Assembly (NCBI GenBank): GCA_963780165.1
Contig: CAWABB010000001.1
Coordinates: 1,816,556-1,880,555, forward strand
DNA length: 64,000 nt
Reading direction: 5' to 3'
DNA from: an uncultured Ignavibacteria bacterium
GTDB lineage: Bacteria; Bacteroidota; Ignavibacteria; UBA10030; UBA6906
Shown here: piece by piece, positions 1-57,897 of the stretch
Layout: each line of letters begins with the position of its first letter
How positions within the stretch are numbered: position 1 is the stretch's first letter
Notes under the pieces: generated by a model
Database searches by the model: none
Told to the model about the DNA's origin: nothing
The model's input: the letters and a program-made list of their open reading frames with translations, nothing else
Made by a program: the position numbers and the translations under genes

Positions 1-933
1 TTCCTTCAGGTATTCTCTGTCGATGTGCGTGTAGATCTGCGTGGTCGAAATGTCCGAGTGCCCCAGCATTTCCTGCACCGCACGGAGGTCCGCACCCCCT
101 TCCAGGAGATGTGTCGCGAACGAATGGCGGAACGTGTGGGGGTGCACGTCTTTGTCGATCTTCGCGCGCGTGCTGTACGTCTGCACGATCTTCCAGATCG
201 CCATGCGCGTCATCGGCCGGCCACGGGCATTCAGAAACAGCACGTCGGTCGACTGCCCGGAGCGGCGAAGGAGCGGGCGACACTCGGATGCGTACCGCCG
301 GATCCAGGTCAGCGCGGACGAACCCACCGGTACAAGGCGCTCTTTTCTCCCTTTTCCATACACCCGAACCGTGCCGTCGTCCGCCTGGATATCCGACCGT
401 CTCAGGCTGAGAAGCTCCGACACGCGGATCCCGGTGGCATACAGCACCTCCAGGACGGTCCGGTCGCGGAGCCAGAGATTGCGCACGTCCTTCGCCGTCG
501 GTGCAGGCTGCTGCAGGATGCTGTCGACTTCCGTGGTGGTCAGGACATCGGGGAGCTGCCGGGAAAGTTTCGGCGGATCGAGTGTCTCGGTCGGGTTCGT
601 TCGCGCGGCGCCATCCCCGACGAGGAACTTGTGAAAGCCGCGGATGGCAGAGAAACTTCGCGTGATGGAGCGGGGCGACAGCCCGCTCTTGCGGAGCGAC
701 CGAAGGAACCGCGCGGTGTGCTCTTCGGACACCTGGTCGGGAGATGTCACCTGCGCGTCTTCCAGAAACCGCACGTACCGGTCGAGATCGAGCCGATACG
801 ATGCAATGGTATTTGGCGACGCGTTCTTCTGCAGTTGCAGGTAGTGGAGATATTGCAGGCAGTACTGATTCACGGGGATTCGCGGGAGATCATTCCTGGC
901 CGCGAGCGGGGATTGGTTCCTCGCCCTGGTCAT
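1..933 (-). CDS. Tyrosine site-specific recombinase, XerC/XerD family. The C-terminus runs off the window start.
   Basis: Reverse complement of nt 1-100 translates to RGGADLRAVQEMLGHSDISTTQIYTHIDREYLKE, the XerC/D catalytic R...HxxR...Y region. The N-terminus (YLHYLQLQKNASPNTIASYRLDLD) lies near 800-933, with an ATG at 931-933. The gene is absent from the ORF track because its stop lies outside the window. Confidence 0.85.
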   Translation of the reverse strand, partial: MTRARNQSPLAARNDLPRIPVNQYCLQYLHYLQLQKNASPNTIASYRLDLDRYVRFLEDAQVTSPDQVSEEHTARFLRSLRKSGLSPRSITRSFSAIRGFHKFLVGDGAARTNPTETLDPPKLSRQLPDVLTTTEVDSILQQPAPTAKDVRNLWLRDRTVLEVLYATGIRVSELLSLRRSDIQADDGTVRVYGKGRKERLVPVGSSALTWIRRYASECRPLLRRSGQSTDVLFLNARGRPMTRMAIWKIVQTYSTRAKIDKDVHPHTFRHSFATHLLEGGADLRAVQEMLGHSDISTTQIYTHIDREYLKE

Positions 934-3187
934 CGCGCCGCTGCGCCGAAGAGGACGCGCGCCGCACGCGCTTTCGCGGCTCGACGTCGGGATACTTCAC
1001 GCGCGTGTGATAGATGCCAACCAGGACGTTCACGAACGCTTCCTTGACCTTCGTGATGTCCTGCAGCGTTAACGGGCACTCATCCAGCTCACCCTGTTCC
1101 ACGCGCCGCTTCACAACGTCGTCCACAAGATCGGTGATGCGTTGCGGCGTCGGCTCTTCGATCGTCCTGACTGCCGCCTCGATCGCGTCCGCAAGCATCA
1201 TAATCCCGGTTTCTCGGGTCTGCGGCTTCGGTCCGGGATAGCGGTAATCCTGCTCCTTGATCTCGTCGATCTTTGTTTCGTCGTCGGACTGGCGCGCCAC
1301 CTCCAGCGCCTTCGAGTAGAAGAAGTCCATCCGCGTGGTGCCGTGGTGCATCGGGATGAATTCGATCACCTCTTCCGGGAGCTTGTAGTCGCGGGCCAGT
1401 GCCATCCCCTCCTTCACATGGGCCGCGATGATGAGCGAGCTCATGCGCGGCGCAAGCTTGTCGTGCCTGCTGCGGGAGGTCTTCTGATTCTCGACGAAGT
1501 ACGTCGGCTTGATAATCTTCCCGATATCGTGGAAGTATGCGCCGACGCGCGCAAGCGTTGCATTGGCTCCGATCGTTGCGGCCCCCGCCTCAGCCAGGCT
1601 GGCCATGGTCATACTGTGGTGGTAGGTGCCGGGCGCCTTCTCGGCAAGCTGGCGGAGCAGCGGGTGGTTGAACTGCACCAGCTCCAGCAGCGTCAGGTCG
1701 GTCGTGAGCCGGAACGTCTTCTCGATGAAGATCAACAGACCGTATGTCAGCACCGGAGAAATGATGGCGTTGGACGCGGCGAACGCGAGCTGCTGGAGGA
1801 GCAGCCCGAGCGGCTCGCTCCGCGCAAAACCCAGCGCGACGATCGCCAGCCCGTATCCCAGGAAGATGAAGCCCAGAGAGTGGAAGATCTGGGTGCGGTT
1901 CTTCATGTCCCGTACCGTGTAGACCGACAGCGCGCCAGCGACGAGCGAGGCCAGGGCGATGCCGTAATCGTTCCCCCAGATGCCAGCGACGATGAACGAA
2001 AGGATCACCGTCCCGTAAAACCCGACGCGCGAATCGAAGAAGATCGTCAAGAGCATTGAGGCCGCGGGCACGACGATGAGATACTCCACCGGCGCCTTGA
2101 CATGCAGCATCCTGAGCGCCCAGGCGGCGGTCCCGGCAAGGAGCATGATCAGCGCAATCAAGGCGAGCTTTCGTGTTCTGCCCACGATGCGCTTTCTGAA
2201 CAGGAATAGATAGATCCCGTAGAGCGTGACGAGGAGTGCGACGTGCAGCGCGGAGCCGATGATCTGGAGCGGTGTGTCGGTGGCGGGGCCCCGGTCCACA
2301 CGGGCCCGGTTGAACGAATCGAGCTTCAGCTTGATCTCGGGCGTGATGCGGTCGTGCTCGGAGACAATGCGCTCGTTCTCCTGCACGAACCCGGTCGTGC
2401 GCGGAACGGCATCGACGGCGGCAGCGGCGGCAAGCGCTGTGGCGGTGTCGTTGAACACCAGGCTCGGCAGAATGTCCGTGATGATGATCTTGTACGCCTG
2501 GCTGCGCAGGCCCGCTGGCAACCGGCCTTCAGCGTCCAATCGTCTGTCGAGGCGCTCGGCGAGATCCCCGCGGTCCAGGAACCGGCTGAGCGGAACAATC
2601 TCTTCGGTCTTGCCGCGCCGGAGCGCAATGTCGGTCCTCTCGAGCTGCGTCTTCGAGCGGTCGAGGACTCCAGTCTGGAGAAATTCTGTCCCGATCGCGG
2701 CAACCGTGCTTTCTAGGACCGCCATGCGCCCGCGGACGTAGATTCCGCGCAGATCCCGCCACTCCTGATCCGTGAACCGCACATCGAGGCCGGAGCTCGA
2801 GGCGCTGAAGGCGAGCGTATCGCCCGCAGGGATGCGGAGCGTAGAATCCAGACGGGAGAACACTCGTGCAATTGCGGCGCGATAGTGCGCCGGCGCGGTC
2901 GAATCACGTTCAAAGACGGGATAGACGGAACGGCGTGCTTCAGCCACGTCCTGTGCGTACTCCTGCTCGTCGCGGTTGATCGGAAAGGAGAAGGGGGCGA
3001 TAAGATCGCGCTGGGCCCAGATAGCCCCGACGCGCGCATCGACTTCGATCTGTTCTCCCCGGGGGAACATCAGCCCGAGAAGGACGATCAGCCCGAGAGC
3101 GATGCTGAGTTTGGCCGCATCAGACCTGACGAGGTGCAGGCCGCGAAAGCGGCGGCCCAGAGCGAGGAGGGGATATTCATCGGCCAT
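890..3187 (-). CDS. 7TM receptor with intracellular HD/HDIG phosphohydrolase domain (7TMR-HD family).
   Basis: 765 aa. It has an N-terminal extracytoplasmic region, a block of about 7 TM helices, and a C-terminal HD domain (HHSMTMASLAEAG...YFHDIGK...HHG). The start ATG is at 3185-3187. Confidence 0.8.
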   Translation of the reverse strand: MADEYPLLALGRRFRGLHLVRSDAAKLSIALGLIVLLGLMFPRGEQIEVDARVGAIWAQRDLIAPFSFPINRDEQEYAQDVAEARRSVYPVFERDSTAPAHYRAAIARVFSRLDSTLRIPAGDTLAFSASSSGLDVRFTDQEWRDLRGIYVRGRMAVLESTVAAIGTEFLQTGVLDRSKTQLERTDIALRRGKTEEIVPLSRFLDRGDLAERLDRRLDAEGRLPAGLRSQAYKIIITDILPSLVFNDTATALAAAAAVDAVPRTTGFVQENERIVSEHDRITPEIKLKLDSFNRARVDRGPATDTPLQIIGSALHVALLVTLYGIYLFLFRKRIVGRTRKLALIALIMLLAGTAAWALRMLHVKAPVEYLIVVPAASMLLTIFFDSRVGFYGTVILSFIVAGIWGNDYGIALASLVAGALSVYTVRDMKNRTQIFHSLGFIFLGYGLAIVALGFARSEPLGLLLQQLAFAASNAIISPVLTYGLLIFIEKTFRLTTDLTLLELVQFNHPLLRQLAEKAPGTYHHSMTMASLAEAGAATIGANATLARVGAYFHDIGKIIKPTYFVENQKTSRSRHDKLAPRMSSLIIAAHVKEGMALARDYKLPEEVIEFIPMHHGTTRMDFFYSKALEVARQSDDETKIDEIKEQDYRYPGPKPQTRETGIMMLADAIEAAVRTIEEPTPQRITDLVDDVVKRRVEQGELDECPLTLQDITKVKEAFVNVLVGIYHTRVKYPDVEPRKRVRRASSSAQRRDDQGEEPIPARGQE

Positions 3188-3315: not shown

Positions 3316-3753
3316 TCAGTTGTTCTTCGCCCCCTGATTCACCCACTCGGTGATGATGCCGATGTCCCCGTCCGACAATGGCTTGATCGGCTCCTTCTTC
3401 CGCTTCTTGCGGGGATCAAAGGGCATCCGGTCGCCGAACGGCGGATTCTCCAGAAGCTTCTGCACGAAGACGCTCTCCGATGCCTTCCCCGGCTTAACCA
3501 AATCTCCGTGTTTCCCGCCTTTCATCAGCAGATCATACGAGTCGAGCGACAGCTCGCTCGGATTAAACTGCTCCTCCGCATGGCACGGCATGCAGTTCCT
3601 GCTGATGATCGGGACGATGTCTTGCGAGAATGATACGGGCGGGCGGACCTTCGGAGTATCCACTCTTTCCACGCCCTTCTCCTGCGCCCGCGCAGCAACC
3701 GCCCAGCCCACCACGAGCAGCGCCAACACACACCAACGATGACGTTCTCTCAA
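3316..3753 (-). CDS. Periplasmic monohaem c-type cytochrome, PSCyt1-like domain.
   Basis: It has a signal peptide (MRERHRWCVLALLVVGWAVAARA) and a single CXXCH motif (CMPCH). The C-terminus shows the pattern ...GG.HGDLVKPG...S.....L....FGDRMPF...LSDGDIGIITEWVNQGA, which resembles the Planctomycete-type cytochrome c (PSCyt1) domain. It is a paralogue of the C-terminus of the 4979..5683 gene. Confidence 0.7.
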   Translation of the reverse strand: MRERHRWCVLALLVVGWAVAARAQEKGVERVDTPKVRPPVSFSQDIVPIISRNCMPCHAEEQFNPSELSLDSYDLLMKGGKHGDLVKPGKASESVFVQKLLENPPFGDRMPFDPRKKRKKEPIKPLSDGDIGIITEWVNQGAKNN

Positions 3754-3764
3754 CGCGCCCTCCC

Positions 3765-4886
3765 TTACAGGTAAAAGTGAAGCATGATGTGAAACTCGTT
3801 GTTGGAGTAGTTCTCCGGCTCCTCCACGACCACGCGATACATCGGACGGACCTCTACGCCGCTCACGGGGAAAAATTCCACCCCGAAACTGTAGCGCGAC
3901 ATCGCGCCATCCTTCACGTCCTTGTCCGGATCGTAGAAATCGTATGCGACCTTCAGGTCCACGCCCGGCGTGACGACGTAGTTGGCCTCGGCGTATGCCA
4001 CGTAGCCGGTAACGGTCCCCGACGGATGTTTCGTCTGGATCATGTCCCCCTCGCCGAACAGCGTGAAGTCTCCGATGCTGAACGACCCAACGCCGCCGAA
4101 GAGATTCTGCGTCACGTCGCCCGAGGTCGTCGTCCCGAACATGTTCGCCCCCAGGCCGAGATGCATGTCTTTCCCAAGCTCGAAGAGACCGTCGGCCCTG
4201 ACCAGGTATGCCTTGCTGTTCCCCGTCGCGGCGCCGAAGCCGTCCTGCGCGTTGTACACCCCTGCAAACGCGGAGAACCAGCCGGGCGACACTCCCGCCT
4301 CGAGGCCCGTCAGCTCAGGCCGCGGGCTGGATTCCGGACTGAACCCCGTGTAGTGGCGGATGTAGGCCGTATGGTCGTCGAGGCGCGTACCAAAGTTCGG
4401 GACAAACTTTCCGACCTTCACGTGCCCGGCGGCCGGCAGCTGGGAGACCATGCCGAACAACTCAAAGCCACTGTAGAGGCCCTTTTCGAAATAGACGTTC
4501 ACCCTCTTGGCGAGCTTGAAGTTGAGGTACAGATCCCCCTGCATCTCCCAGAACGCGTTGCTGTTCTTCCCGGATGAGCCACCGGTGTCCGGCAGCTGCA
4601 CATAATAATAGAGCGTCCGCACGTCCACGCCGACTCCGACGAAGTTCGTGAGCAGCGTCGTAAAGTCTTCGATCTCCATGTCTGTGCCCCACTCCGGAAC
4701 CGGGAGCGTTTCCCGGCCGTACTGCGCACCAAACAGCTGCCGCATGCCGGCACCGGACGGGTTCACGTGACACGACTGGCACTTCGCGCCCGTCCTGCTC
4801 GAAAACCGCGGCAGGGCGGCAGCCTGGTTGAGCATGAACATCGCGCCAACCACAACGAGAGAAAGACAACGAAGCAGCACGCGCAT
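3765..4886 (-). CDS. cyc2: Cyc2-like fused monohaem cytochrome c / outer-membrane beta-barrel porin.
   Basis: It has a signal peptide (MRVLLRCLSLVVVGAMFMLNQAAA) followed by a single CXXCH (AKCQSCH) within 20 residues of the mature N-terminus. About 340 aa then follow with alternating hydrophobic beta-strand patterns rich in G/Y/F, ending ...IMLHFYL. Size (about 373 aa) and architecture match Cyc2-type iron-oxidase porin-cytochromes. The ATG is at 4884-4886 with an AAGGGA ribosome-binding site upstream. Confidence 0.6.
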   Translation of the reverse strand: MRVLLRCLSLVVVGAMFMLNQAAALPRFSSRTGAKCQSCHVNPSGAGMRQLFGAQYGRETLPVPEWGTDMEIEDFTTLLTNFVGVGVDVRTLYYYVQLPDTGGSSGKNSNAFWEMQGDLYLNFKLAKRVNVYFEKGLYSGFELFGMVSQLPAAGHVKVGKFVPNFGTRLDDHTAYIRHYTGFSPESSPRPELTGLEAGVSPGWFSAFAGVYNAQDGFGAATGNSKAYLVRADGLFELGKDMHLGLGANMFGTTTSGDVTQNLFGGVGSFSIGDFTLFGEGDMIQTKHPSGTVTGYVAYAEANYVVTPGVDLKVAYDFYDPDKDVKDGAMSRYSFGVEFFPVSGVEVRPMYRVVVEEPENYSNNEFHIMLHFYL

Positions 4887-4978
4887 GGTCGTCCCTTTCG
4901 GTCCTGGAGGTGGAATGCACGACACGGGAGGCGGGGAAATATACCTACCCCCCGTGTGTGATTCAACACAACCGACCA

Positions 4979-5683
4979 CTAGTTATTCAGCGCGCCCTGA
5001 TCGACCCAGGTACGGATGGTCGTGATACTCGCGTCCGGCAGGAACGGACCGCCCTGCGGCATGCGGGCACCGAAAGGCGGGTTCGGTGAGATCTTCTTCA
5101 CGAGGTTCGAGCCGGCTCCATCGCCAGGCACGATGGCCGGTCCATGGTTGCCGCCTCTGAGCAGGTCGGCAACCGTTTCCACCGTCAGCCCGTTGGTGCC
5201 GCCGTGGCACCCTGTGCAGCCGTGCTGCACCAGCAACGGGTGAACATCCTGCGAGAAGGAGACCTGTGTCGTCCCCGCCTGAACCGTTACTCCGACGGCA
5301 TTCGAGTTCGCGGAGATCCCGCCCGCCGTCACGGCGCGCACACGATAAAAGTAGCGCGCGCCGGTGGTGAGCCCGGTGATCGTGAGGGAGGTCGCAATTC
5401 CGGCGTCGCGGTTGTTGTAGCCGGCAAGGAACGAGCCGAACAGCGAATCCTGAGAGACGTCGAGGCGATAACCCGTAGCCCCGCTGACGGCGCTCCACCT
5501 TGCGGTGAAGCTTGAATCGGTGACGCCCGTCGGCGAGCCGGCGGTGGGGACGCCGGTGTCGGGCGGAGTAGCGGGGTTGGTGCCCGAATCGCTGCACCCC
5601 GCTGCCAGCAGCATCAGTCCGGCCATTGCTGCCAGAAGCGGGGACGCAGTCGTCGACCCGGCGGAGGATCGAACGATGAACAT
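4979..5683 (-). CDS. Lipoprotein with an FN3-like domain fused to a C-terminal monohaem cytochrome c (PSCyt1-like).
   Basis: Lipobox LLAAGC. The central part has a fibronectin-III-like segment (...GYRLDVSQD...TGLTTGARYFYRVRAVTAGG). The C-terminus has CTGCH plus ...GG.HGPAIVPGDGAGSNLVKKI...FGARMP...ITTIRTWVDQGA, homologous to the 3316..3753 gene. The ATG at 5681-5683 lies 17 nt after the CHRD gene stop. Confidence 0.7.
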   Translation of the reverse strand: MFIVRSSAGSTTASPLLAAMAGLMLLAAGCSDSGTNPATPPDTGVPTAGSPTGVTDSSFTARWSAVSGATGYRLDVSQDSLFGSFLAGYNNRDAGIATSLTITGLTTGARYFYRVRAVTAGGISANSNAVGVTVQAGTTQVSFSQDVHPLLVQHGCTGCHGGTNGLTVETVADLLRGGNHGPAIVPGDGAGSNLVKKISPNPPFGARMPQGGPFLPDASITTIRTWVDQGALNN

Positions 5684-5699: not shown

Positions 5700-7616
5700 T
5701 TATTTGAGTATGAGCATGCGTTTCGTGAGCGATGGGCCGCTGCCCGCATCCAGCCTGTAGAAATAGACGCCGCTGGAAAGTCCGCGCGCGTCAAAGGTGG
5801 CCAGGTAGGTCCCGGCCGGGCGCACGTCATCAACAAGTGTCGCGACCTCCTGCCCGAGCAGACTGTACACCTTCAGCGACACCCGACCGGGCTCCGGAAC
5901 CTGGAAGCGGATCGAGGTTGACGGATTGAAGGGGTTGGGATAGTTCTGATCCAGCGAAAAGGCTGACGGTAGAGCCTCCTCAACCGGCGCAACGGATGTC
6001 ACCGCGTCTGAACCGAAACGCACCTGTCCGCGGATCTCACCTCCCGGATGGGCGGCCGTATGGAAGTTAGCATAGATGCGACCAGCCAGCAAGGAATCCA
6101 CGAGCGCCCGGGTCAACGGCTGCGACGGGCTGTTCGTGGACCAGTTGTCCGCAATCGTTGCCGACGCAGGATCGCTTGCCCCGGCAATGTTCCGCACCAC
6201 GGGCCCGTTCACACCGACCGGCGCCGCATGGAAGTGCCCGCCGATCGAAAGCGGTCCGGAGAGGCCATAGTACGTAATTGCATAGCCAATGTCTTGACGT
6301 TCCGCATTCAGCACCACGGATCCCGCCCCGCGCCCCGCGGTTGCGACGGCAGGAACTTCCTGATCCCCGTCAAGCATGATGGTGAACCCCACGCCGGTGG
6401 TGAGATGCACCTGGTCTCTGATTTCGCCGGCCGGGTTCGCCGTCGTGTGGAAGTTTACGTAGATCCTCCCTGCCAGCAGCGCCTCCACCAGCGCGACTGT
6501 CAGCGGCTGGGAGTCGGTGGTCGTCCACGTCCCTGCATACGTGGCAGAAGCAGGGCCGCCGCCATTCGCTACACCGCGCACGACCGGCCCGGATTGCCCC
6601 TGATCGCCCGTATGGAAGTGTCCGCCGGCGGTCAGCGGCCCGGTCAGGCCGAAGTAGGTAATCTCGTAGCGCAATTCATTCCGCGCATCGTTCAGCGTGA
6701 ACGACCCGGCCCCTTTCCCGTCTGCGGTCACCGTCCCGGGTTCGTTAGAAGCTTCGAGCCACGAGAAGAAGCTCGTGCCGCCCTGGAGTTCGAGCTGGCC
6801 CCGGATCTCCCCTCCGGGATTCGCGGCGGTATGGAAGTTCACGTAGAGGCGCCCGGCAATGAGCGAATCCGCGAGCGCCGGTGTGAGCGGCGTGCTGTCC
6901 GTGAACTTCCAGCTTCCCTTGATGGCGTCCGCTGCGGGACCCCCGCCCGACGCGATTCCGAGCGCCACGGGCCCCGATACCCCACGAGCCCCCGTATGAA
7001 TGTGGCCGCCCGCACTGAGTGAGCCGCTCAGGTCGCGATAGGCCAGGTAGTAATCGAGCTGCGATCTGTTTGGAGATAGGATGAATACGCCCGTCCCCAT
7101 GGCGTCGGTCGTCACAGGATTCGGTTCCTGCGCCCCGGAGAGGTGCGCGGTGAAGTGCAGGGCTGTCGCAAGCGTGACCTGGCCCCGGATTTCGCCCGCC
7201 GGATTTGAGTTTGTATGGAAATTCACGTAGACCCGGCCGGTGAGCAACGACTCAACAAGTGCCGGTGTGAGCGGCTCTGTGTCGGTGCTCCGCCAGACTC
7301 CCGTGATGATCCCCGACGGCGCCGCCCCCGCCTCTGCAATGCCTCGCATGGCGGCGCCGTTTGTTCCCGGGGACCCCACGTGAAAATGCCCGCCCACCGA
7401 GAGCGCGCCTGTCAGCCCCTGATAGGAGATCACATACGCAAGCTCGGTGAACGTCTCATTCAGCGAGAACGAACCTGAGCCCGTCCCTGTGACGGCGGAG
7501 GGGGGAACGCTCTGCGCGCCGTTCAGCGTTGCCGAAAAGTGGATCTGCGCGTTCGCCGGGCCCGCCCCAGCAAGCACGAGAGCGATCAGCACCATGGTGT
7601 ATCGGAATCGAGTCAT
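5700..7616 (-). CDS. T9SS-secreted protein with four tandem CHRD domains.
   Basis: It has a signal peptide. Four modules of about 150 aa each carry the CHRD signature (GGH[FI]H.G..G..GPV...I.......G.W...D..PLT.ALV..LL.GR.YVNFHT..[NH]P.GEIRGQ). The C-terminus (NYPNPFNPSTSIRFQVPEPGRVSLKVYSLLGQEVATLVD...GVYFYRL) is a Por/T9SS C-terminal sorting domain. Confidence 0.8.
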   Translation of the reverse strand: MTRFRYTMVLIALVLAGAGPANAQIHFSATLNGAQSVPPSAVTGTGSGSFSLNETFTELAYVISYQGLTGALSVGGHFHVGSPGTNGAAMRGIAEAGAAPSGIITGVWRSTDTEPLTPALVESLLTGRVYVNFHTNSNPAGEIRGQVTLATALHFTAHLSGAQEPNPVTTDAMGTGVFILSPNRSQLDYYLAYRDLSGSLSAGGHIHTGARGVSGPVALGIASGGGPAADAIKGSWKFTDSTPLTPALADSLIAGRLYVNFHTAANPGGEIRGQLELQGGTSFFSWLEASNEPGTVTADGKGAGSFTLNDARNELRYEITYFGLTGPLTAGGHFHTGDQGQSGPVVRGVANGGGPASATYAGTWTTTDSQPLTVALVEALLAGRIYVNFHTTANPAGEIRDQVHLTTGVGFTIMLDGDQEVPAVATAGRGAGSVVLNAERQDIGYAITYYGLSGPLSIGGHFHAAPVGVNGPVVRNIAGASDPASATIADNWSTNSPSQPLTRALVDSLLAGRIYANFHTAAHPGGEIRGQVRFGSDAVTSVAPVEEALPSAFSLDQNYPNPFNPSTSIRFQVPEPGRVSLKVYSLLGQEVATLVDDVRPAGTYLATFDARGLSSGVYFYRLDAGSGPSLTKRMLILK

Positions 7617-7645
7617 GTGTGTCTCCAGTCTGGTTGCAGCTGTGG

Positions 7646-7852
7646 TTAGGCCGACCGTTTCGCGGTCGTGACCTTGAGCAATGCGTACAGCGGGCAGAAT
7701 CCGGCGGCACCCGTCACGAGCAGCACGACAGCCACGATCCCGAGGATCACGGCAGTCGGGCCGGTGAGCTGTCCACCCATGATCAACACTCCGATCGCAA
7801 GTGCGACGAGCGTCCGGATGACACGGTCCGCCGAGCCGACATTCTTTGTCAT
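7646..7852 (-). CDS. DUF2892 (YgaP-like) small inner-membrane protein.
   Basis: 68 aa with two TM helices. Conserved ADRVIR...G.......LTG..GFCPLYALL motif. It is the first gene of the operon and has a GGGGGGA ribosome-binding site. Confidence 0.65.
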   Translation of the reverse strand: MTKNVGSADRVIRTLVALAIGVLIMGGQLTGPTAVILGIVAVVLLVTGAAGFCPLYALLKVTTAKRSA

Positions 7853-7975
7853 TTCAGTCCCCCCAGAAAAAGGTTTGCGTACTGCGTTGATTCAGTTGCT
7901 GTCGCCGTCCTGATCTTCGTCGGGGAAGGCCTTCTCAAACGACCTTTTGATGTTGTCTTCGACCATCCTCGCAGG

Positions 7976-7991
7976 GTCAAGCACCGTGCCA
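7976..7991 (-). promoter_or_regulatory. Putative sigma54 (-24/-12) promoter reading toward the DUF2892/CHRD/Cyc2 operon.
   Basis: The minus strand reads TGGCACGGTGCTTGAC. This matches TGGCACG-N4-TTGMW, with GG at -24 and TTG at -12. The single mismatch is GA in place of the conserved GC. It lies about 125 bp upstream of the DUF2892 start, and a sigma54 activator is encoded adjacent. Confidence 0.45.
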
Positions 7992-8100
7992 CACCGGGAG
8001 GCGCGCAGGCCGGCATGAACATGGCGGAAATGGCTGATACGGTGCGGGTCCGGGGGGGAACGGGGATTTCAGGCCGCACCCCGGGTACGGAGATGGGCGA

Positions 8101-8128
8101 CCCGGTGTGGCGGCCGTGCCACACCGGG
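8101..8128. promoter_or_regulatory. Perfect inverted repeat CCCGGTGTGGC-N6-GCCACACCGGG, a candidate enhancer (UAS) for the adjacent NtrC-family activator.
   Basis: The arms are 11 bp with a 6-bp spacer. It lies about 115 bp upstream of the putative sigma54 promoter, relative to minus-strand transcription. The half-site GCCACACCGGG recurs at 7988-7998, overlapping the -24 element. Confidence 0.45.
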
Positions 8129-8223
8129 GAGAGGCTCAACGAAAGCCACGATGGAGCTCGCAAGAGACCGGGAGATGGTCTTTGGGAGACTGGGCTGAAG
8201 CGCGCAAAAGGCTGCGGCAGCGC

Positions 8224-9639
8224 TTACGCGCGATATGTGGCCGGGTCGATCGAGTGCTCGGCGAGTTTGCGGTACACGGTCTTCCTGTCCACCTCCATCA
8301 GCCGCGCTATCTGGTTGATGTTGCCCCGATGCTCCCGCATGAGCCGGAGCAGGTATCGCTCCTCGGCGACGCGCACAATCACCCCGAGATAATCGCGGTA
8401 CGGAATATCGAGGCCGGGGACGGCGGGTTGCTCATCTCCCGCGAGCGCGTGATCGGCGGCACCGGGGAGTTCGAGGTGCGTGATCGTGTCGCCGGGCGTC
8501 TTGAGCAGCGCACGCTTGATCAGGTTCTCGAGCTCGCGGACATTCCCGCGCCAGGGATGCGCAACCATCTCGCCGATGACGTCAGGACTGATGGAGGTGA
8601 CGCGCCCACCAGCAAGGTGGGCGTGAAGCCGCAAGAAATGCTCCGCAAGCAACGGGATGTCCTCCACGCGCTCGCGCAGTGGCGGAAGCGTGATCGGAAA
8701 CACGTTTAGACGGTAGAAGAGATCCTCGCGGAAATCTCCCGCAGCAACCATGACATCAAGATTGCGGTTCGTTGCGGCCACGACACGGGTGTCGACCGTA
8801 ACGGTCTTCCCTCCGCCGACGCGCTGGAATGTCTTTTCCTGCAGTACCCTCAGGAGCTTCCCCTGCAGCGCTGGCGGCATCTCCCCGATCTCATCCAGGA
8901 AGAGGGTCCCCGTGTCTGCCTCCTCGAACTTCCCGGTCCGCTGCCTGTCGGCTCCCGTGAACGAGCCCCGCTCGTGGCCGAACAGCTCGCTTTCCAGCAG
9001 TTGTTCCGGCAGCGCCGTACAGTTCACGGCAACGAACGGGCTCGACTTCCGTCTGCCGTTGAAGTGCAGCGCACGCGCGACAAGCTCCTTCCCGGTTCCG
9101 CTTTCACCAAGGATCAACACGGTCACGTCGGTGTCGGCAACCTGCGTGATCTGGGTGATCACGTCCCGTATCCCGGGGCTGCGGGAAACCATCCCGCCCA
9201 GACTGTACTTCGTCTGGACGGCGTCCCGCAGCGACCTGAGCTCGAGCTCCCGGAACTGCTGATCCAGAGCCCGGCGGATCTTGATCGACAGCTCCTCATT
9301 GTTGGACGGTTTGGTCAGGTAGTCGATGGCGCCGAGTCGCATGGCTTCCACCGCCGTCTGGATGGAACCGAATCCCGTCACCATGATCACAGGCAGGTCA
9401 GGCCACTGCTGCTTGACGATGCGAAGAAGGTCGATGCCACTTCCGCTCCCCATCACAAGATCGGAAAGGAGCAGGTCACATCGCTGGGCAGCGAGGATAT
9501 CGAGCGCTTTCGTGACGCCGTCGGCCAGCGTCACCTTGTAGCCCTCGTCCTCGAGCACGGTGCGGGTCGCCAGCCGGAAGGCTCCGTCGTCATCCGTCAC
9601 AAGGATGTGTTCTCTCGGGCGTGCGTCAGTGTGTGTCAT
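8224..9639 (-). CDS. Sigma54-dependent response regulator (NtrC family; REC-AAA+-HTH).
   Basis: Receiver domain (ILVTDDD...DLLLSDLVMG...). AAA+ sigma54-interaction domain (GESGTGKELVARALH, GAFTGA-like SFTGA). C-terminal Fis-type HTH. Its start overlaps the stop of the upstream kinase. Confidence 0.9.
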   Translation of the reverse strand: MTHTDARPREHILVTDDDGAFRLATRTVLEDEGYKVTLADGVTKALDILAAQRCDLLLSDLVMGSGSGIDLLRIVKQQWPDLPVIMVTGFGSIQTAVEAMRLGAIDYLTKPSNNEELSIKIRRALDQQFRELELRSLRDAVQTKYSLGGMVSRSPGIRDVITQITQVADTDVTVLILGESGTGKELVARALHFNGRRKSSPFVAVNCTALPEQLLESELFGHERGSFTGADRQRTGKFEEADTGTLFLDEIGEMPPALQGKLLRVLQEKTFQRVGGGKTVTVDTRVVAATNRNLDVMVAAGDFREDLFYRLNVFPITLPPLRERVEDIPLLAEHFLRLHAHLAGGRVTSISPDVIGEMVAHPWRGNVRELENLIKRALLKTPGDTITHLELPGAADHALAGDEQPAVPGLDIPYRDYLGVIVRVAEERYLLRLMREHRGNINQIARLMEVDRKTVYRKLAEHSIDPATYRA

Positions 9640-11209
9640 CGTGCGCGTCTCCGGACGGCAGCGTGATCGTGAGCCGTGTTCCCTTGCCGGCTGTGCTCTG
9701 GACGGTGATCGTGCCGCCGTGCTGGTGAACGATTCCGTGGGTGACCGAGAGGCCGAGGCCGACCCCGCTTACCTCTTTCTTTGTAGTGAAAAAGGCGTCG
9801 AAAATGCGATGAAGGTGTTCGGGAGGGATGCCCGTGCCGGTGTCGTCCACACGGACCACGAGGTTGCCTCCCTCCGCCCGCGCCCCGATCGAGATCGTCC
9901 CACCATGCGGCATCGCATCCCGCGAGTTCAGAAGAAGATTCAGGAACACCTGCTTCAGCTTGTCCCGGGATCCGCGGACTGCAGGGAGTCCGGGGCCCGC
10001 CGATACGTCGATCGAGATACCCTGCCCTGCGAACGATTCCCGGTACATGCGAACAACGTCTTCCACGAGGTCCATCACGTTCACCGGTGAGCGCTCCACC
10101 CGGACCGGAGCGCCGCGGTACATGTCCAGCATCGCCCTCGTCAATCCCGCAAGGCGGTTCACCTCGTCCAGCGCCACCGACACCAGCTCGTGCGCCGGAT
10201 CATCGGCGCGGATTTTCCGGAGCGATGAAGACAGGAGGCTCTGGATGTTATGGACGGGGTTGTTGATCTCGTGCGAAAGCTGGGCGGTCAGCGTGCCAGT
10301 CAGCGCGAGGCGCTCGCTGCGCACGAGGTCTTCCTGTGTCCTGCGCAGGCGCTCGAGTGCCTCTTCGATGTCACGATTCTTCCGCGACAGCTCACGGTTG
10401 GCGTGATCGAGCTCGCCGATCTTCTGCCTGAGCGAGAGACGCATGTCGTCGAACCTTGCCGCAAGGAACCCGAGCTCGTCTCCCGCGTCCGTTTCCTCCG
10501 CCGCCCGAGGGGTGGCAGACTCGAGGTCGCCCTTGCTGATCGCGCGGGTCGCCGCAACCAGCCGGTCCACCGGCCTGGTGACAAACCGCGTGAACATGAA
10601 CGACGAGACAAAGATGACGAGCCCCGTGAATCCCAGGAAGATGAGGAGCGACCGTGTCCAGTTCGCCCTGGTCGCGGCGGTCATATCGGCGAACGAAACG
10701 CTGAGGTCGGCCGCGCCAAGCGTGTAGCCCACGGGCACAGCATGGCACTCCTGGCAGGTCTTTGTTGCAGTGAACGGGATGACCCCTCGGAACCGATCGC
10801 CCGCCCGAACGAACTCGGGGGTTCCGCTCTCCAGTGCCTTCCGCGTCATCGGGTCGCGCGCACCGATGTCGACGAACCGGCGGCTGGTGGCGACCTTCGG
10901 CACCGCAGGCTGCGCTTCCTTGCGCAGCCGGAGGTCATTCACCACGAGCCGCACCGTCTCGAACCGCTCGATGGTATTCACCCGCTCGATAAACGCAGTA
11001 TCGACTTCCAGATTCGTCACCATCATGCTGACCAGGGATTCCCGGAGGATGTCGGCATGTGTGTGGGCGGACAACTGTGCCTGCTCCACCATTTCGCGCT
11101 CCTGGAACCGGTTCTGGAGGAGCACGCTAACCGAGATAAACAGGAGGAACAGGGGGAGAATCCCCAGGAGAATCTTCCGGGAGAGCGGCAGACGCTGCAG
11201 AACGTGCAT
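9626..11209 (-). CDS. Sensor histidine kinase with a periplasmic CXXCH (haem-c) containing sensor domain.
   Basis: N-terminal TM, a periplasmic domain of about 170 aa containing TKTCQECHAVPVGYTLGAADLSVSF, a second TM, HAMP, HisKA (LSHEINNPV) and HATPase_c. The periplasmic module may be Tll0287-like/DUF3365 (haem-c PAS-like), but this is unconfirmed. The likely start is the ATG at 11207-11209. Confidence 0.85.
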   Translation of the reverse strand: MHVLQRLPLSRKILLGILPLFLLFISVSVLLQNRFQEREMVEQAQLSAHTHADILRESLVSMMVTNLEVDTAFIERVNTIERFETVRLVVNDLRLRKEAQPAVPKVATSRRFVDIGARDPMTRKALESGTPEFVRAGDRFRGVIPFTATKTCQECHAVPVGYTLGAADLSVSFADMTAATRANWTRSLLIFLGFTGLVIFVSSFMFTRFVTRPVDRLVAATRAISKGDLESATPRAAEETDAGDELGFLAARFDDMRLSLRQKIGELDHANRELSRKNRDIEEALERLRRTQEDLVRSERLALTGTLTAQLSHEINNPVHNIQSLLSSSLRKIRADDPAHELVSVALDEVNRLAGLTRAMLDMYRGAPVRVERSPVNVMDLVEDVVRMYRESFAGQGISIDVSAGPGLPAVRGSRDKLKQVFLNLLLNSRDAMPHGGTISIGARAEGGNLVVRVDDTGTGIPPEHLHRIFDAFFTTKKEVSGVGLGLSVTHGIVHQHGGTITVQSTAGKGTRLTITLPSGDAHDDTH

Positions 11210-11331
11210 GGAACGGCCGGTAATTGGTGGACGGCGACGGCTGATTCGGCTCAAGGTACCTGTTTGACGAAAGAGAATCAAAAAACAGCCTTCTTGAACC
11301 TCCACATTCGGATGCCTATATTATAGATTCG

Positions 11332-13290: not shown

Positions 13291-13664
13291 TCAAGGGAAT
13301 CGGCGTCGACATCATCGAGATCGATCGTATCCGTCGCCTGGCGACTGACAGCGGAGAGAGGTTCCTTCAGCGGGTGTTCACCGAGGGCGAGCTCCGGTAC
13401 GCCGCCGGAAAGCACCATCAGTACCAGCACCTCGCGGCACGCTTCGCCGCCAAGGAGGCAACGAGCAAGGCCCTGGCCACCGGATGGTCCGGGGCTTTCC
13501 GCTGGACGGACGTCGAGGTGGTCAACGACCCCACGGGCCAGCCGCGCATCGTGCTCCATGGCGAGCTCGAGAAGTTGCTGGCCGGCGCCACCGTCCATGT
13601 CACCATCTCCCACTCGGATTTTCACGTCGTCGCGATGGTTGTCATCGAGGAGTCCCGGCCGTGA
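13287..13664 (+). CDS. acpS: Holo-[acyl-carrier-protein] synthase (4'-phosphopantetheinyl transferase).
   Basis: MIKGIGVDIIEIDRI...FTEGELRYA...RFAAKEATSKALGTG... is a canonical AcpS sequence of 125 aa. Confidence 0.9.
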   Translation: MIKGIGVDIIEIDRIRRLATDSGERFLQRVFTEGELRYAAGKHHQYQHLAARFAAKEATSKALATGWSGAFRWTDVEVVNDPTGQPRIVLHGELEKLLAGATVHVTISHSDFHVVAMVVIEESRP

Positions 13665-13666
13665 GG

Positions 13667-15124
13667 ATGAGCATTTACGGGAAGATGGTGATCGGGTTTG
13701 GTGTCATCATCCTGGTGCTGGTCCTCGTCAACGGGTCCATCCTGTTTCAGCTGCGGGAGTTCTCGGACACGGTTCGCCTCATGCTGGCAACGAACGCCCG
13801 CACCATCGAAGCTGCCCGCCAGGCGCGCACGCTACTGGCTGAAGAGGAGGGGAGCGCCCGGAAACTCCTTGTCACCGGCGACACCCTGTACAGGGCTCTC
13901 TTTGCCGACGTCGCCTCGCTCTCCCGGCCACTCATCGATTCCGTCCTCCCATCGATCTCGCCGCCCCGCGAACGTCCGGCGCTCGCGGCCATCGCCGCGT
14001 CCCATCGCACGCTTTGCGAGTCGATCATGAACCCCGCGATGCTGCCGGGCAAGGGAACGGCCTCGGGGCTGCGGGAAGCGGCGATCGCCGACACAATCGC
14101 TCGGCTTCAACTGTCGCTGGACGGAGTGATCATGCGCACGCGCGAGGACATGAGCCGCTCGATGACCGAGCTCGAGACGAACACCGGGCGAGCGCTGGAA
14201 CGCGCGGCGTACCTGACCATCGGGGCGTTGCTCGGCACGCTGCTCGTCGCGCTCATCATCACGCGCACCATTACCCGCCCGCTGAAGGCCCTGCAGGCCG
14301 GAACGCGCCACGTTCTCGAGGGAGTCCATGTCCCTATCCGGGTCTCCTCCAGAGACGAGATCGCCAGCCTTGCCGACGACTTCAACGACATGAGCGAGCG
14401 GCTGAAACGGAGCAACGAACTCCGGACGGAAATGCTGCAGCAGATCTCACATGAGATTCGGAGTCCGCTGCAGTCCATGTACGCCGCATACTACCTCCTC
14501 TCCCAGCAGATCGCGGGCCCGATCACGGACGAGCAGCGCAAGGTGATCGGCAACATCAAGAACAACATCGACCGCATTTCGGATTTCAGCACACACTTCC
14601 TCGACCTTGCAAAGATCGAAGCGGGCGTGATGCCGTTCGCCCCCGAAACGGTCAACCTCGCCGACGTGATCGCCCCGGCCGTCGAGAACGCCCTGCTCGT
14701 CGCGCGTGAACGGAACATCACCCTCACGCTGGAGGCCACAGAGACCCCCCGGGTGACAGTCGATCCCGGCAAGATCGAGCAGGTTGCGACGAATTTTCTG
14801 ACCAACGCCCTGAAATATACGCCCGAGGGCGGAAGGATCACCGTTCACGTCGGCCCCTCCGAATTCGGGACGCAGCTCACCGTCACCGACACCGGCGTGG
14901 GAATCCCGCCGGAGGACGTGCCGAAACTCTTCACGAAGTTCTTCCAGGCAGCGAATTCCGGACAGACGGGGAGGAAGGGGACCGGTCTCGGGCTCGCCCT
15001 CGTACGGGCGATCATCAAGCAGCACGGCGGCCATGTCCGCGCGGAAAGCGTGCTCGGCTCGGGCTCGACGTTCATCGCCGAGTTCCCGCCGGCAACTGTC
15101 AGCCAGGAGGAATCAGCATCATGA
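13667..15124 (+). CDS. Sensor histidine kinase (TM-sensor-HAMP-HisKA-HATPase).
   Basis: N-terminal TM, HAMP, HisKA (ISHEIRSPLQSM) and HATPase_c (DTGVGIP..., GTGLGLAL). Confidence 0.9.
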   Translation: MSIYGKMVIGFGVIILVLVLVNGSILFQLREFSDTVRLMLATNARTIEAARQARTLLAEEEGSARKLLVTGDTLYRALFADVASLSRPLIDSVLPSISPPRERPALAAIAASHRTLCESIMNPAMLPGKGTASGLREAAIADTIARLQLSLDGVIMRTREDMSRSMTELETNTGRALERAAYLTIGALLGTLLVALIITRTITRPLKALQAGTRHVLEGVHVPIRVSSRDEIASLADDFNDMSERLKRSNELRTEMLQQISHEIRSPLQSMYAAYYLLSQQIAGPITDEQRKVIGNIKNNIDRISDFSTHFLDLAKIEAGVMPFAPETVNLADVIAPAVENALLVARERNITLTLEATETPRVTVDPGKIEQVATNFLTNALKYTPEGGRITVHVGPSEFGTQLTVTDTGVGIPPEDVPKLFTKFFQAANSGQTGRKGTGLGLALVRAIIKQHGGHVRAESVLGSGSTFIAEFPPATVSQEESAS

Positions 15125-26727: not shown

Positions 26728-29328
26728 ATGGAATCACGCCATACGTTCGCCCTTCTGTTCTTGCTCGTCCTCCCATTGGCCGCAGCCACCGCTCAGGAGG
26801 TGGATGATTATCGGATACTCAATATCACCCAGACTACCTCCTCCCCGACACAGCTGGCTATTGACCGGGGTCGACTCATCTGGCGCGACACCGACCCGAA
26901 CTCGGGCAAGTACTTTCTCAAGTACTCTTCGGGTGCTGATGTTATGGTGCTCGATTCCAACCTCCACGCAGTGTCTGCGGCCATAAGCGGCGACCACGTA
27001 GTGTGGACCACTCACCTGGAGAACGTGAAGGCATTTGACATTCGCTCGTGGACAACCGTTCCGATCGGTGTGTCGTACAACCCCGATTTCAGGCAGCCTG
27101 TCTGCGCGTCAGGAGACTTCGCCGCGTACGCAACGCGGAAACCGGGGACCGGTACGAATATCCTCCTGCACTGCTTCTCTTCAGGAGTCGACACGTCACT
27201 GAGCGCAGGGGTGTGGAATACTGCCCCGAGCGTCCACCACGGACAAGTTGCCTGGGTTGCCTCTGACGCAGAATTCGAGCTGGCTTCGTCGAGCATCGTC
27301 TTCTTCGATGGCCAGCGAACACGGACTATCTCCGGAACGACGGGTCTCCAACCTCGGGCCCCGATAATGAGAGACGCACAGGTCGTATGGGTGGAATCGG
27401 GCCCTCCCTCATGGCGTGTGCGGCTCTTTACGGAGGATTCCGTCATTACCCTCCTTGAACAAGGAGTCGGATCCGACGTGTGCACGGGGTACGACGCCAG
27501 CAATGGTATCGGCGTGGCGGCACTGCGAGACACGATCACGAGCCGCGGAAGGATCGAAATCTTCTCCGCCGAGACGGGAACCAGACAGACGATTCCCGAT
27601 TCCAACGGAGTCTGGAGCGTACACATCGATAACGGATTAATCGTCTGGCAATCGGGGAGCGGGCCGCGCAAGCGGTTGAGGACCCATGCATACCCCGGCG
27701 GACTCTTCGAGGAGATCGGTCTCGCCGAGAATCCGGTCGTGGATGATGGTCGGATTGCCTGGACCCTGGGCGATGCCGTCAGCCTGTATGTGCCGGTCAC
27801 CTACACGCGCATGACCTCGGACGGTGTGAACGGGTGGGAGCAGACGAAGTTCAAGACGATCGATAGCAGCGCGATCGTTTGGGGGAACGCGGCCGGCAAC
27901 ACGACTTCCTATCGGCTGTTCTACGACAACGCGGGCACTACCACACAACTGACCGACTCCTTGCTGCCGCGCGATCTGCTCATGCTGAATGACGGCTATC
28001 TCGTCTGGCGATCGAACTTCGACTCTCTCCATTATTACGATGGTGTTCACGCGCCCGTGAAGTTCCTGGACACCATTCAGGCTGAAAATCTGTACGTGGC
28101 CGGGGGTTCGATCGGATTCTTCGGCCCCAGAACAACGAACGGAGAGAGTATCAAGCGAGGCTGGCTCTATCGGATTGCCTCAGGGAGCCTGATCCAGTTG
28201 ACTTCCGGTGACGCTGAATCCGGCAATGTGCTCTGCTATGGGGCGACGGCGTGCTGGCGTGATCTGAACACAGAACGTATGATGTTCCACGACGGAGCCA
28301 CTACCGCCACGATCAGCGATTCATCAGTCACTGAACACTACAGCTACAGGAACGGCGTGATCGTGTGGTCGGAGCGCCGAAATGGAATTCAGCAGATCAT
28401 GATGTACGATATCGCAGCCGCGGCAAAGACCCAGGTCACCAACTCTAGTGCGTCGATGCTCTATCCGATCACCGATGGGTCTCATATCGTCTGGTACGAG
28501 AATGCAGAGTACCCGTTCCCCGCCGTGAATCCAGTGATGTGGTACTATGACGTTGCCACGAGTGAATCGCGACGAGTTGCGCGCACATCATACAACCAAC
28601 TGATGTGGAACTGGATGACAGACGGTACCATCGCATGGACCCAGGACAAGAATGTTCTCGTGTGCGACGGGAGGGTCGTCACGCAGCTGACAAGCGATGA
28701 TTTTTACGAGAACGCTCCGGTCTATCTGGACCGTGGATTGTATGTGTGGCGGCGCGCAGGCGATATCTTTCGCGGGAAGCTTCGCGCCCACGCCGCATTC
28801 GATGCAGCAAATATTGCCGGCGACGTCCCGCTCACTGTAGCGTTCACCAATCGATCCTGGGAGGGATGCCGGAGCTATCTCTGGAAGTTTGGGGATGGCA
28901 CCTCGAGTACAGCAATAGATCCGGTTCACACCTATGTCGCTCCCGGGAGCTTCACGGTGACGTTGACGGTCACAGGCCCAACGGGAACGGCGAGTGAGAA
29001 GAAGGTACAGTTGGTGAGAGCATTATCCTCCACGGCCATTGCGGCAGACGATTTGCAGCATCCAGAACGCACGGAGCTCTTGCCGAATTACCCGAACCCA
29101 TTTAATCCGACCACGGAGATTTCCTATCAGATTGCGGATGCGGCAATCGTGACGCTCAAGATCTACGACGTCCTCGGGAGAGAGGTGGCGACGCTTGTGA
29201 ACGAGGCACAATCCCCGGGAACTCACCGTGCGCCATGGGACGGATCGCAGCACGCGAGCGGAATCTACTACTACACCATGAAGGCAAATGCATTTCTCGC
29301 CACGCGCGCGATGATTCTCATGAAGTGA
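26728..29328 (+). CDS. T9SS-secreted protein with W-rich repeats, a PKD domain and a Por C-terminal sorting domain.
   Basis: Signal peptide. Repeated ...G.[IV]VW... units. PKD domain (WKFGDGTSS...HTY..PGSFTVTLTVTG). C-terminal LPNYPNPFNPTTEISYQI...VYDVLGREVATLV CTD. GAGGA ribosome-binding site before the ATG at 26728. Confidence 0.8.
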   Translation: MESRHTFALLFLLVLPLAAATAQEVDDYRILNITQTTSSPTQLAIDRGRLIWRDTDPNSGKYFLKYSSGADVMVLDSNLHAVSAAISGDHVVWTTHLENVKAFDIRSWTTVPIGVSYNPDFRQPVCASGDFAAYATRKPGTGTNILLHCFSSGVDTSLSAGVWNTAPSVHHGQVAWVASDAEFELASSSIVFFDGQRTRTISGTTGLQPRAPIMRDAQVVWVESGPPSWRVRLFTEDSVITLLEQGVGSDVCTGYDASNGIGVAALRDTITSRGRIEIFSAETGTRQTIPDSNGVWSVHIDNGLIVWQSGSGPRKRLRTHAYPGGLFEEIGLAENPVVDDGRIAWTLGDAVSLYVPVTYTRMTSDGVNGWEQTKFKTIDSSAIVWGNAAGNTTSYRLFYDNAGTTTQLTDSLLPRDLLMLNDGYLVWRSNFDSLHYYDGVHAPVKFLDTIQAENLYVAGGSIGFFGPRTTNGESIKRGWLYRIASGSLIQLTSGDAESGNVLCYGATACWRDLNTERMMFHDGATTATISDSSVTEHYSYRNGVIVWSERRNGIQQIMMYDIAAAAKTQVTNSSASMLYPITDGSHIVWYENAEYPFPAVNPVMWYYDVATSESRRVARTSYNQLMWNWMTDGTIAWTQDKNVLVCDGRVVTQLTSDDFYENAPVYLDRGLYVWRRAGDIFRGKLRAHAAFDAANIAGDVPLTVAFTNRSWEGCRSYLWKFGDGTSSTAIDPVHTYVAPGSFTVTLTVTGPTGTASEKKVQLVRALSSTAIAADDLQHPERTELLPNYPNPFNPTTEISYQIADAAIVTLKIYDVLGREVATLVNEAQSPGTHRAPWDGSQHASGIYYYTMKANAFLATRAMILMK

Positions 29329-56838: not shown

Positions 56839-57897
<1,059 letters not shown>

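Follow-up and report, generated by a model that had tools for sequence, protein, structure and literature searches.

What sets the expression of the genes that follow a kinase-activator pair in an uncultured Ignavibacteria bacterium? The question is raised by a 64-kb stretch of contig CAWABB010000001.1 (hereafter the window, that is, the whole stretch analysed, to which all coordinates refer; G+C content 61.6%), in which a gene cluster lying entirely on the minus strand contains a wide intergenic gap between the gene of an NtrC-family response regulator and that of a YgaP-like small membrane protein (Table 1). A first-pass annotation of this DNA had proposed that the gap accommodates a sigma-54 promoter of the -24/-12 type together with a palindromic enhancer on which the adjacent NtrC-type activator would act. 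Our comparison of orthologous loci lends strong support to this core proposal, and we consider it highly probable that an enhancer-dependent sigma-54 promoter located in the gap drives the genes lying beyond the kinase-activator pair.

A conserved promoter element and paired palindromes

The minus strand of the gap carries a promoter-like element, TGGCACGGTGCTTGAC, at 7991..7976, in keeping with the TGGCAC-N5-TTG match reported at 7976-7991 by the first-pass annotation; transcription would be predicted to start 24 nt downstream of the second G of its GG doublet. When the gap of the window was aligned with that of 11 relatives (12 sequences), TGGCACG..G.TTGA.C emerged as the sole fully invariant block, including the GG of the -24 element inside TGGCAC (7991..7986). 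The wider set of orthologous loci (designated by L numbers) was assembled by exact look-up of activator homologues, by exact look-up of YgaP homologues and by one scan of metagenomes with aligned sequences of the porin-like protein encoded further downstream, the relatives being annotated merely as Bacteroidota or Ignavibacteria metagenome genomes. Across about 25 of these loci the rest of the intergenic DNA is unalignable, and the motif recurs with its exact N5 spacing. Twenty-five unique promoters, selected by the pattern TGGCA[CT]-N5-TTGN and the presence of an upstream palindrome, yield the family consensus TGGCA(C/T)(G/A)-N4-TTGA(A/C), in which the base following TGGCAY is a purine (G or A) in 25/25 cases.

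Upstream of this element, the perfect 11-bp palindrome that had been claimed at 8101-8128 is present as described and reads CCCGGTGTGGC-ACGGCC-GCCACACCGGG on the minus strand (8128..8101), with 11-nt arms that are 100% complementary and a 6-nt spacer. Its centre is 125.5 bp away from the second G of TGGCAC (edge-to-edge gap of 109 bp) and stands at about -150 relative to the predicted transcription start. The 64-kb window contains a perfect TGTGGC-N6-GCCACA here alone, while the 10-mer CCGGTGTGGC occurs three times, all within 7988-8127 (141 bp), against a mean of 0.33 in shuffled sequences, none of 100 of which reached three copies. The first-pass annotation had missed a second, weaker site between the palindrome and the promoter. 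The corresponding block, GGTGTGGCCTGAAATCCCCG, is nearly invariant among close relatives; the left arm of this proximal site reads TGTGGC in L168, a 99% relative, and in distant relatives a well-formed palindrome takes its place, 81.5-84.5 bp from the -24 element.

Over the orthologous loci the sites obey the consensus TGTGGC-N6-GCCACA with a spacer fixed at 6. The orthologous loci, 519 kb in all, contain 9 perfect copies and 27 with no more than one mismatch, versus 0 and 2, respectively, in a negative control of 872 kb surrounding 80 paralogous activator genes from many phyla (39-52% identical, among the matches listed). Pairs of sites spaced by 44-45 bp from centre to centre are resolved in 14 of the 25 promoters, and three more, including the window, display a degenerate second site. 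Measured to the second G of the -24 element, the proximal sites lie at 48.5, 60.5-61.5, 69.5-72.5, 80.5-84.5 or 91.5 bp and the distal ones at 104.5-105.5, 113.5-117.5 or 124.5-128.5 bp; the distances thus move by steps of about one helical turn (~10.5-11 bp), with a maximal Rayleigh resultant of 0.83 at a period of 10.8 bp, a value obtained on loci that are not independent. The gap shows what is looked for in upstream activating sequences, namely dyad-symmetric sites 80-150 bp upstream, at least two of them adjacent, and a face-of-helix relation to the promoter.

The product of the adjacent gene has the domain make-up of a sigma-54 activator: a receiver, an AAA+ domain and a Fis-type helix-turn-helix (HTH), Walker A and Walker B motifs, a GSFTGA loop at 8967 and a match to Sigma54_activat with an E-value of 7e-73. 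No further sigma-54 activator gene was found in the window beyond 8224-9639. Its recognition helix, DRKTVYRK, is invariant across 120 orthologues whose overall identity ranges from 61 to 100%, which fits the invariance of the site consensus; from this and from the adjacency of the gene in most loci, we infer that the activator binds the palindromic sites. The tract lying between the proximal site and the promoter (8007..8035, minus strand) is modestly A+T-enriched, the A+T fraction of the aligned promoters being 0.49-0.50 at -66 to -47 versus 0.35-0.41 further upstream. CATTT(C/T)C is nearly invariant there among close relatives, no clear motif was found in the tract, and it may perhaps serve as a bending region. 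A sequence resembling a site for integration host factor, TATCAGCCATTTC, was discarded, being conserved only as far as the closest relatives, which leaves the weak A+T enrichment.

Table 1. Features of the gene cluster and of its intergenic gap, in window coordinates
Feature	Position	Strand	Basis or remark
Sensor histidine kinase	9626..11305	-	Pfam HAMP, HisKA, HATPase_c
NtrC-family response regulator, sigma-54 activator (bacterial enhancer-binding protein)	8224..9639	-	Pfam Response_reg, Sigma54_activat, AAA_lid_14, HTH_8
370-bp gap between activator gene and YgaP-like gene	7853-8223	-	Intergenic
Distal enhancer (putative upstream activating sequence)	8101..8128; core TGTGGC-N6-GCCACA at 8106-8123	.	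Perfect palindrome, conserved consensus
Proximal degenerate enhancer (putative), TGCGGC-CTGAAA-TCCCCG	8061..8078 (read 8078..8061)	.	45 bp from distal site; centre at about -105
Third copy of the enhancer arm, CCCGGTGTGGCACGG	7984..7998	-	Overlaps the -24 element; arm at 7988-7998
Predicted sigma-54 promoter, TGGCACG-GTGC-TTGAC	7976..7991	-	-24 GG at 7990/7989; -12 doublet GA at 7978/7977
Predicted 5' untranslated region	7853..7965	-	Start at about 7965 +/- 2, deduced from the -24/-12 geometry
YgaP-like small membrane protein, first gene after the promoter	7646..7852	-	Pfam PF11127, E 1.1e-20
Four-CHRD protein with a C-terminal sorting domain for type IX secretion	5700..7616	-	Domain matches
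Lipoprotein-like protein with fn3 and PSCyt1 (CxxCH) cytochrome c domains	4979..5683	-	Domain matches
Probable sigma-A-type promoter before the Cyc2-like gene, TTGAAT-N17-TATATT	4938..4966	-	Motif, conserved
Cyc2-like fused cytochrome-porin	3765..4886	-	Signal peptide, single CQSCH, 16-strand barrel
Small PSCyt1 cytochrome c	3316..3753	-	Domain
Seven-transmembrane (7TM) receptor with HD hydrolase domain, last conserved gene of the cluster	890..3187	-	Pfam

Several points weigh against this reading. The promoter motif is by itself marginally above chance in a window of 61.6% G+C, where TGGCAY-N5-TTGM has two exact matches versus 0.45 expected and 7/100 shuffles reach two, so that the case for the promoter is carried by position, orientation, context and conservation, not by the match. 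Since the pattern used for selection fixed TGGCA[CT] and TTG, the conservation of these letters in the set of 25 promoters is there by construction, and unbiased evidence of conservation is confined to the 12-sequence alignment of the gap and to the free positions of the 25 promoters. Many of these promoters are moreover co-ancestral, so that both the counts and the Rayleigh statistic suggest more independent observations than there are. The proximal site of the window has four mismatches to the consensus. Six-frame translations of the window gave no match to the RpoN box; rpoN is absent from the window, and its presence in the genome is deduced from that of the activator. A separate sigma-A-type promoter inside the gene cluster, described below, makes it uncertain how far the sigma-54 transcription unit reaches. 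Finally, the -12 doublet of the window is GA instead of GC, although TTG and the spacing of 10 nt after GG are exact; the GC element is presented in PMC3844500 as a conserved one, belonging to the region that melts early and by which the closed complex is stabilised. As for the other perfect canonical sigma-54 motif of the window, TGGCACCGACATTGC at 57723-57737 (+), it falls within long open reading frames (ORFs) of both strands and was set aside as a promoter, this match being probably due to chance.

The first-pass annotation had named an incompatibility of GA with sigma-54 as what might overturn its proposal. This objection does not seem to hold, GA being the conserved state of the family and a known minority variant in the published material consulted. 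The last base of TTGN, which the pattern left unconstrained, is A in 22 of the 25 promoters and C in the three others (L124, L144, L153), and the canonical C in these three orthologues identifies the position as the -12 element. Among the 17 matches to the same motif in the 872-kb control, 13 have C, 2 have G, 2 have T and none has A; the comparison of A versus non-A between orthologous and control matches gives 4e-9 by Fisher's exact test, the 25 promoters sharing ancestry. As far as table S2 of a compilation of sigma-54 promoters goes, A is found at this position in 3 of 29 Desulfomicrobium (D. baculatum) sites and in 0 of 24 classic E. coli promoters, where pspA and pspG have T (PMC12316311). 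The promoters of our family resemble these non-C promoters of the table (TTGT for E. coli pspA and pspG; TTGA for Desulfomicrobium zraP, fliK and lpxC) in combining a canonical -24 element with replacement of the C, and differ from them in that such promoters form a minority there, whereas A is conserved family-wide here (PMC12316311). Literature searches on the site consensus and on a -12 variant specific to Bacteroidota returned nothing relevant. Given the role ascribed to the GC element in the closed complex, the consistent A may alter closed-complex behaviour. The conserved A at -12 is one of two mildly unusual traits of an otherwise standard enhancer-dependent promoter.

Alternative readings of the gap

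Both halves of the regulatory region can be read in another manner. TTGAC could be the -35 box of a sigma-70-type promoter, or of one served by an extracytoplasmic function (ECF) sigma factor, with TGGCAC as a coincidence. TTGAC(A) does fit the classical -35 hexamer, the lineage appears to use -35/-10 promoters (such as TTGnnn-N17-TATATT before the Cyc2-like gene) and the first gene in distant relatives encodes an ECF sigma factor; ECF sigma factors are often autoregulated. Yet over the stretch 5-30 nt past TTGA no position of the 25 promoters is more than 64% conserved, which leaves no -10 box and speaks against a sigma-70-type -35; a scan of the gap for sigma-70-type promoters and terminators called none of either; TGGCA(C/T)(G/A) stands at exact N5 spacing in every motif-bearing orthologue, and three orthologues have TTGC, the sigma-54 consensus. 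We regard a -35 box at this place as very unlikely. The palindrome, for its part, might be an RNA hairpin that terminates the kinase-activator mRNA or stabilises its 3' end rather than an enhancer, a proposal that finds support in its location, 96-123 nt past the stop codon of the activator gene and on the same strand, and in the 11-bp stem that its RNA would form (-26.3 kcal/mol, z = -3.3). Against it, no U tract follows the stem, and the very sequence TGTGGC/GCCACA is kept, beyond mere pairing, around a spacer fixed at 6; the second site is frequently a poor palindrome, and the sites are in helical register with the promoter. Besides, in L118, L144, L149, L155 and L159 the sites do not follow the activator gene, and in L118, L144 and L155 they precede, together with the promoter, an ECF sigma gene, no kinase or activator gene being detected upstream within the locus (~5.8-7.2 kb). 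That promoter and palindromes stay with the target operon and not with the activator gene argues against an activator-gene terminator; the hairpin reading we hold to be most improbable.

Two further elements of the first-pass annotation fared less well than its promoter and distal palindrome. A 24-codon acidic leader ORF does exist at 7892..7966 (7892..7984 in a GTG-extended form) and is intact in the window and L168 alone. That it would be translated into a leader peptide regulating the operon strikes us as scarcely credible, even if the DNA beneath it is partly conserved in the L169 group: the homologous DNA of this group (L169-L174) has undergone a +1 frameshift and contains a different upstream ORF, L175 (whose YgaP is 94% identical) shows ACG at the place of the ATG and is missing most of the segment, and L001 and L003 are devoid of the ORF. 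Its ATG, furthermore, falls on the predicted transcription start, so that translation would need to be leaderless, and RNA structure in the predicted 5' untranslated region is not significant (z = -0.9). An Rfam scan of 7000-9000 at E <= 1 gave no match. In close relatives the 5' untranslated region is 47 to 237 nt long, with 48 to 61 nt in L001 and L003, and we read it as an untranslated leader prone to indels, a probable indel hot-spot. The L169 group harbours an insertion of ~120 nt in this region, with an ATG-started frame that is open into the YgaP start codon.

The half-site said to recur over the -24 element, at 7988-7998, is likewise present in the window and conserved in the closest clade only. 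CCCGGTGTGGCACGG forms a 15-nt exact direct repeat at 7998..7984 and 8128..8114 that links an enhancer arm to the -24 region, and the activator could be imagined to occupy the -24 element as well, through this third half-site, for negative feedback or for anchoring the loop at the promoter. The preservation of GGTG before TGGCAC in the window, L168, the L169-L174/L177 group and L175, hence in three sub-lineages of close relatives whose flanks diverge by ~30%, would suit such a role. This is offset by the absence of GGTG in L001 and L003, by the presence of TG at those two positions in just 3 of the 25 promoters when one leaves the close clade (L004, L119, L159), by the TGGCA that the half-site TGTGGCA and the -24 motif TGGCAC have in common, which makes part of the likeness automatic, and by the fact that a lone half-site is a poor target for a dimer. 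All in all a role for the third half-site seems unlikely, and the 15-nt identity is, judging from the loci compared, a trait of the closest clade.

Probable target genes and the kinase-activator pair

The enhancer-dependent promoter does not face the same gene in all lineages. A YgaP-like gene occupies the first position in the window's clade (L001, L003 and L168-L177 share this arrangement), an ECF sigma factor gene does so in most relatives that are 59-68% identical, and a 249-aa lipoprotein-like protein is encoded first in L149. ECF sigma genes come first in L004 (6644-7225), L006 (6611-7171), L007 (6672-7256), L111, L117 and L119, and also in L124, L132, L152, L118, L144 and L155. For the more distant relatives one is led to suppose a cascade in which sigma-54 acts through an ECF sigma factor; no orthologue of their ECF sigma factor was found in the 64-kb window. 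Further downstream, the conserved core consists of a porin-like protein, a small cytochrome c and a 7TM-HD receptor. L149 (1-8562) and L159 (1-5382) are rearranged, the sites and the promoter being upstream of an operon that holds the kinase and activator genes: the string comprises the lipoprotein-like gene (resolved in L149 only), the CHRD gene and a cytochrome gene, then the kinase and activator genes, then the Cyc2-like gene. Such an arrangement would give positive autoregulation.

Directly upstream of the Cyc2-like gene, TTGnnn-N17-TATATT is found in 17 of the 19 loci inspected (the window, L001, L004, L006, L007, L101, L111, L117-L120, L124, L132, L135, L136, L144 and L154). The TATATT box hardly varies, an uncommon trait in a housekeeping promoter. 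It is therefore probable that the Cyc2-like genes carry their own sigma-A-type promoter, and they may be transcribed independently of the sigma-54 promoter; what the first-pass annotation called the operon is for this reason probably not one unit. No terminator was predicted between the genes of the cluster. The sigma-54 promoter would thus probably serve directly the YgaP, CHRD and cytochrome genes, or the ECF sigma gene in relatives, with read-through into the Cyc2-like genes as a possibility.

The Cyc2-like protein (~370 aa) has a signal peptide and a single CQSCH near its N-terminus, and its AlphaFold model, a 16-strand barrel, has a mean predicted local distance difference test score (pLDDT) of 69.9 and a predicted template modelling score (pTM) of 0.72, with OprP (2o4v) as the best match among the solved structures of the PDB. 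The porin-like family numbers 531 homologues at E <= 1e-5, entered as 'hypothetical protein' in Ignavibacteria/Bacteroidota genomes. Cyc2 itself is described as a 16-strand porin with a signal peptide and a single CXXCH, for which OprP 2o4v was the reported template, and its signature comprises AXPXFAR[Q/K][T/Y] 5 aa before CXXCH and PXL 4 aa after it (bioRxiv 10.1101/228056). The window protein, ALPRFSSRTGAKCQSCHVNPSG, shares with Cyc2 the signal peptide, the single CXXCH and the OprP-like 16-strand barrel. In contrast, it has ALPRFSSRT, which stands 3 aa before CXXCH, PXL is absent (HVNPSG), and its gene has a sigma-A-type promoter that is probably its own. We accordingly name it Cyc2-like rather than a member of Cyc2, the signature motifs being partial only.

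Regarding the two-component pair, the kinase orthologues are 519-537 aa long, their genes have the overlap with the activator gene that is seen in the window, and the real start of the window kinase is probably located ~30 codons downstream of the GTG at 11305. The pair may have its promoter at a TATAAT hexamer, 11321-11326 (-), which precedes the annotated GTG by ~15 nt. Upstream of the pair and on the opposite strand, a second histidine kinase gene extends over 13484-15124 (+), with a tblastn match at 14147-15088, and a comparable opposite-strand second kinase exists upstream in L001, L006, L007, L119 and L152. When the C-terminal part of the CHRD protein (residues 532-638, sorting domain included) was used in tblastn, matches were obtained in the window at 29032-29325 and 31855-32172 (+), a sign that it encodes additional substrates of type IX secretion. 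Compared with the named NtrC-family equivalogs of NCBIfam (AtoC, NtrC, ZraR, GlrR, NtrX and others), the activator stays under every cut-off, AtoC being the top model (452.7 bits vs 714), with NtrC at 417 vs 558.6 and ZraR at 383 vs 760.

Proposed mechanism, known systems and significance

By analogy with NtrC-type systems, one may imagine that the membrane kinase senses a signal in the envelope and phosphorylates the receiver of the activator. Dimers of the activator would then bind the palindrome (8106-8123) and the weaker site 45 bp downstream (8061-8078) through their Fis-type HTH and assemble on both into an active AAA+ ring. The DNA would loop over ~80-125 bp, across the modestly A+T-enriched tract, and bring the GSFTGA loops into contact with a sigma-54 RNA polymerase engaged in a closed complex on TGGCACG-N4-TTGAC (7991-7976). 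ATP hydrolysis would open the promoter, and the transcript, starting near 7965, would encode the YgaP-like protein, the secreted CHRD protein and the cytochrome c lipoprotein, and might read through into the Cyc2-like genes.

In the NtrC paradigm, of which the enteric glnAp2-type promoters are the model, two dyad sites (TGCACC-N5-GGTGCA) are located ~100-150 bp upstream, in helical phasing and ~32 bp apart. The window has in common with this system the TGGCAC and TTG at -24/-12 spacing, the two dyad-symmetric upstream sites, their helical phasing and an activator of receiver, AAA+ and Fis-type HTH encoded beside its kinase. It departs from it by its TGTGGC-N6-GCCACA sites, which are 44-45 bp apart, by its -12 GA, by an activator that scores below the NtrC equivalog cut-off and by target genes unrelated to nitrogen assimilation. 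AtoC and ZraR are, with NtrC, among the best NCBIfam models for the activator, AtoS and ZraS are the best ones for the kinase, and the adjacency of the kinase-activator pair to its sigma-54 target recalls zraSR-zraP; the scores are nevertheless well under the cut-offs, and the sensor domain, the target genes and the binding site differ from those of AtoSC and ZraSR. The TyrR box, TGTAAA-N6-TTTACA, is bound by a dimer with a Fis-type HTH, and TyrR carries ACT and PAS domains. Our sites have the same 18-bp TGT-N12-ACA layout, with 6-nt arms and a 6-nt spacer, but their inner arms are GGC/GCC instead of AAA/TTT, and the protein concerned is a response regulator, not a TyrR with ACT/PAS domains.

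Taken as a whole, this is an ordinary bacterial switch with a promoter that is otherwise standard for enhancer-dependent transcription, and its second mildly unusual trait, after the A at -12, is the link to the Cyc2-like cluster and, in relatives, to an ECF sigma cascade. For an uncharacterised NtrC-family two-component system that occurs in metagenome genomes of Ignavibacteria/Bacteroidota, the analysis provides testable outputs, namely a site (TGTGGC-N6-GCCACA), a promoter model (TGGCAY-R-N4-TTGA) and a target set made of the YgaP-like and CHRD genes, or of the ECF sigma gene, beside a Cyc2-like cytochrome-porin cluster. It also provides a natural promoter family with A for the C of the -12 GC, which could be used in studies of the -12 element and of the stability of the closed complex. 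It is tempting, if rather doubtful, to go further and to suppose that in Ignavibacteria/Bacteroidota the pair and its TGTGGC-N6-GCCACA enhancer are dedicated, as a master switch, to a Cyc2-like module that carries out extracellular electron transfer or iron oxidation, that they act in most lineages through an ECF sigma factor, and that the A at -12 is a selected tuning of the closed complex. If this were true, the A would reflect, for example, a weaker locking of the closed complex and hence a different basal or induced range of expression, and not a tolerated drift.

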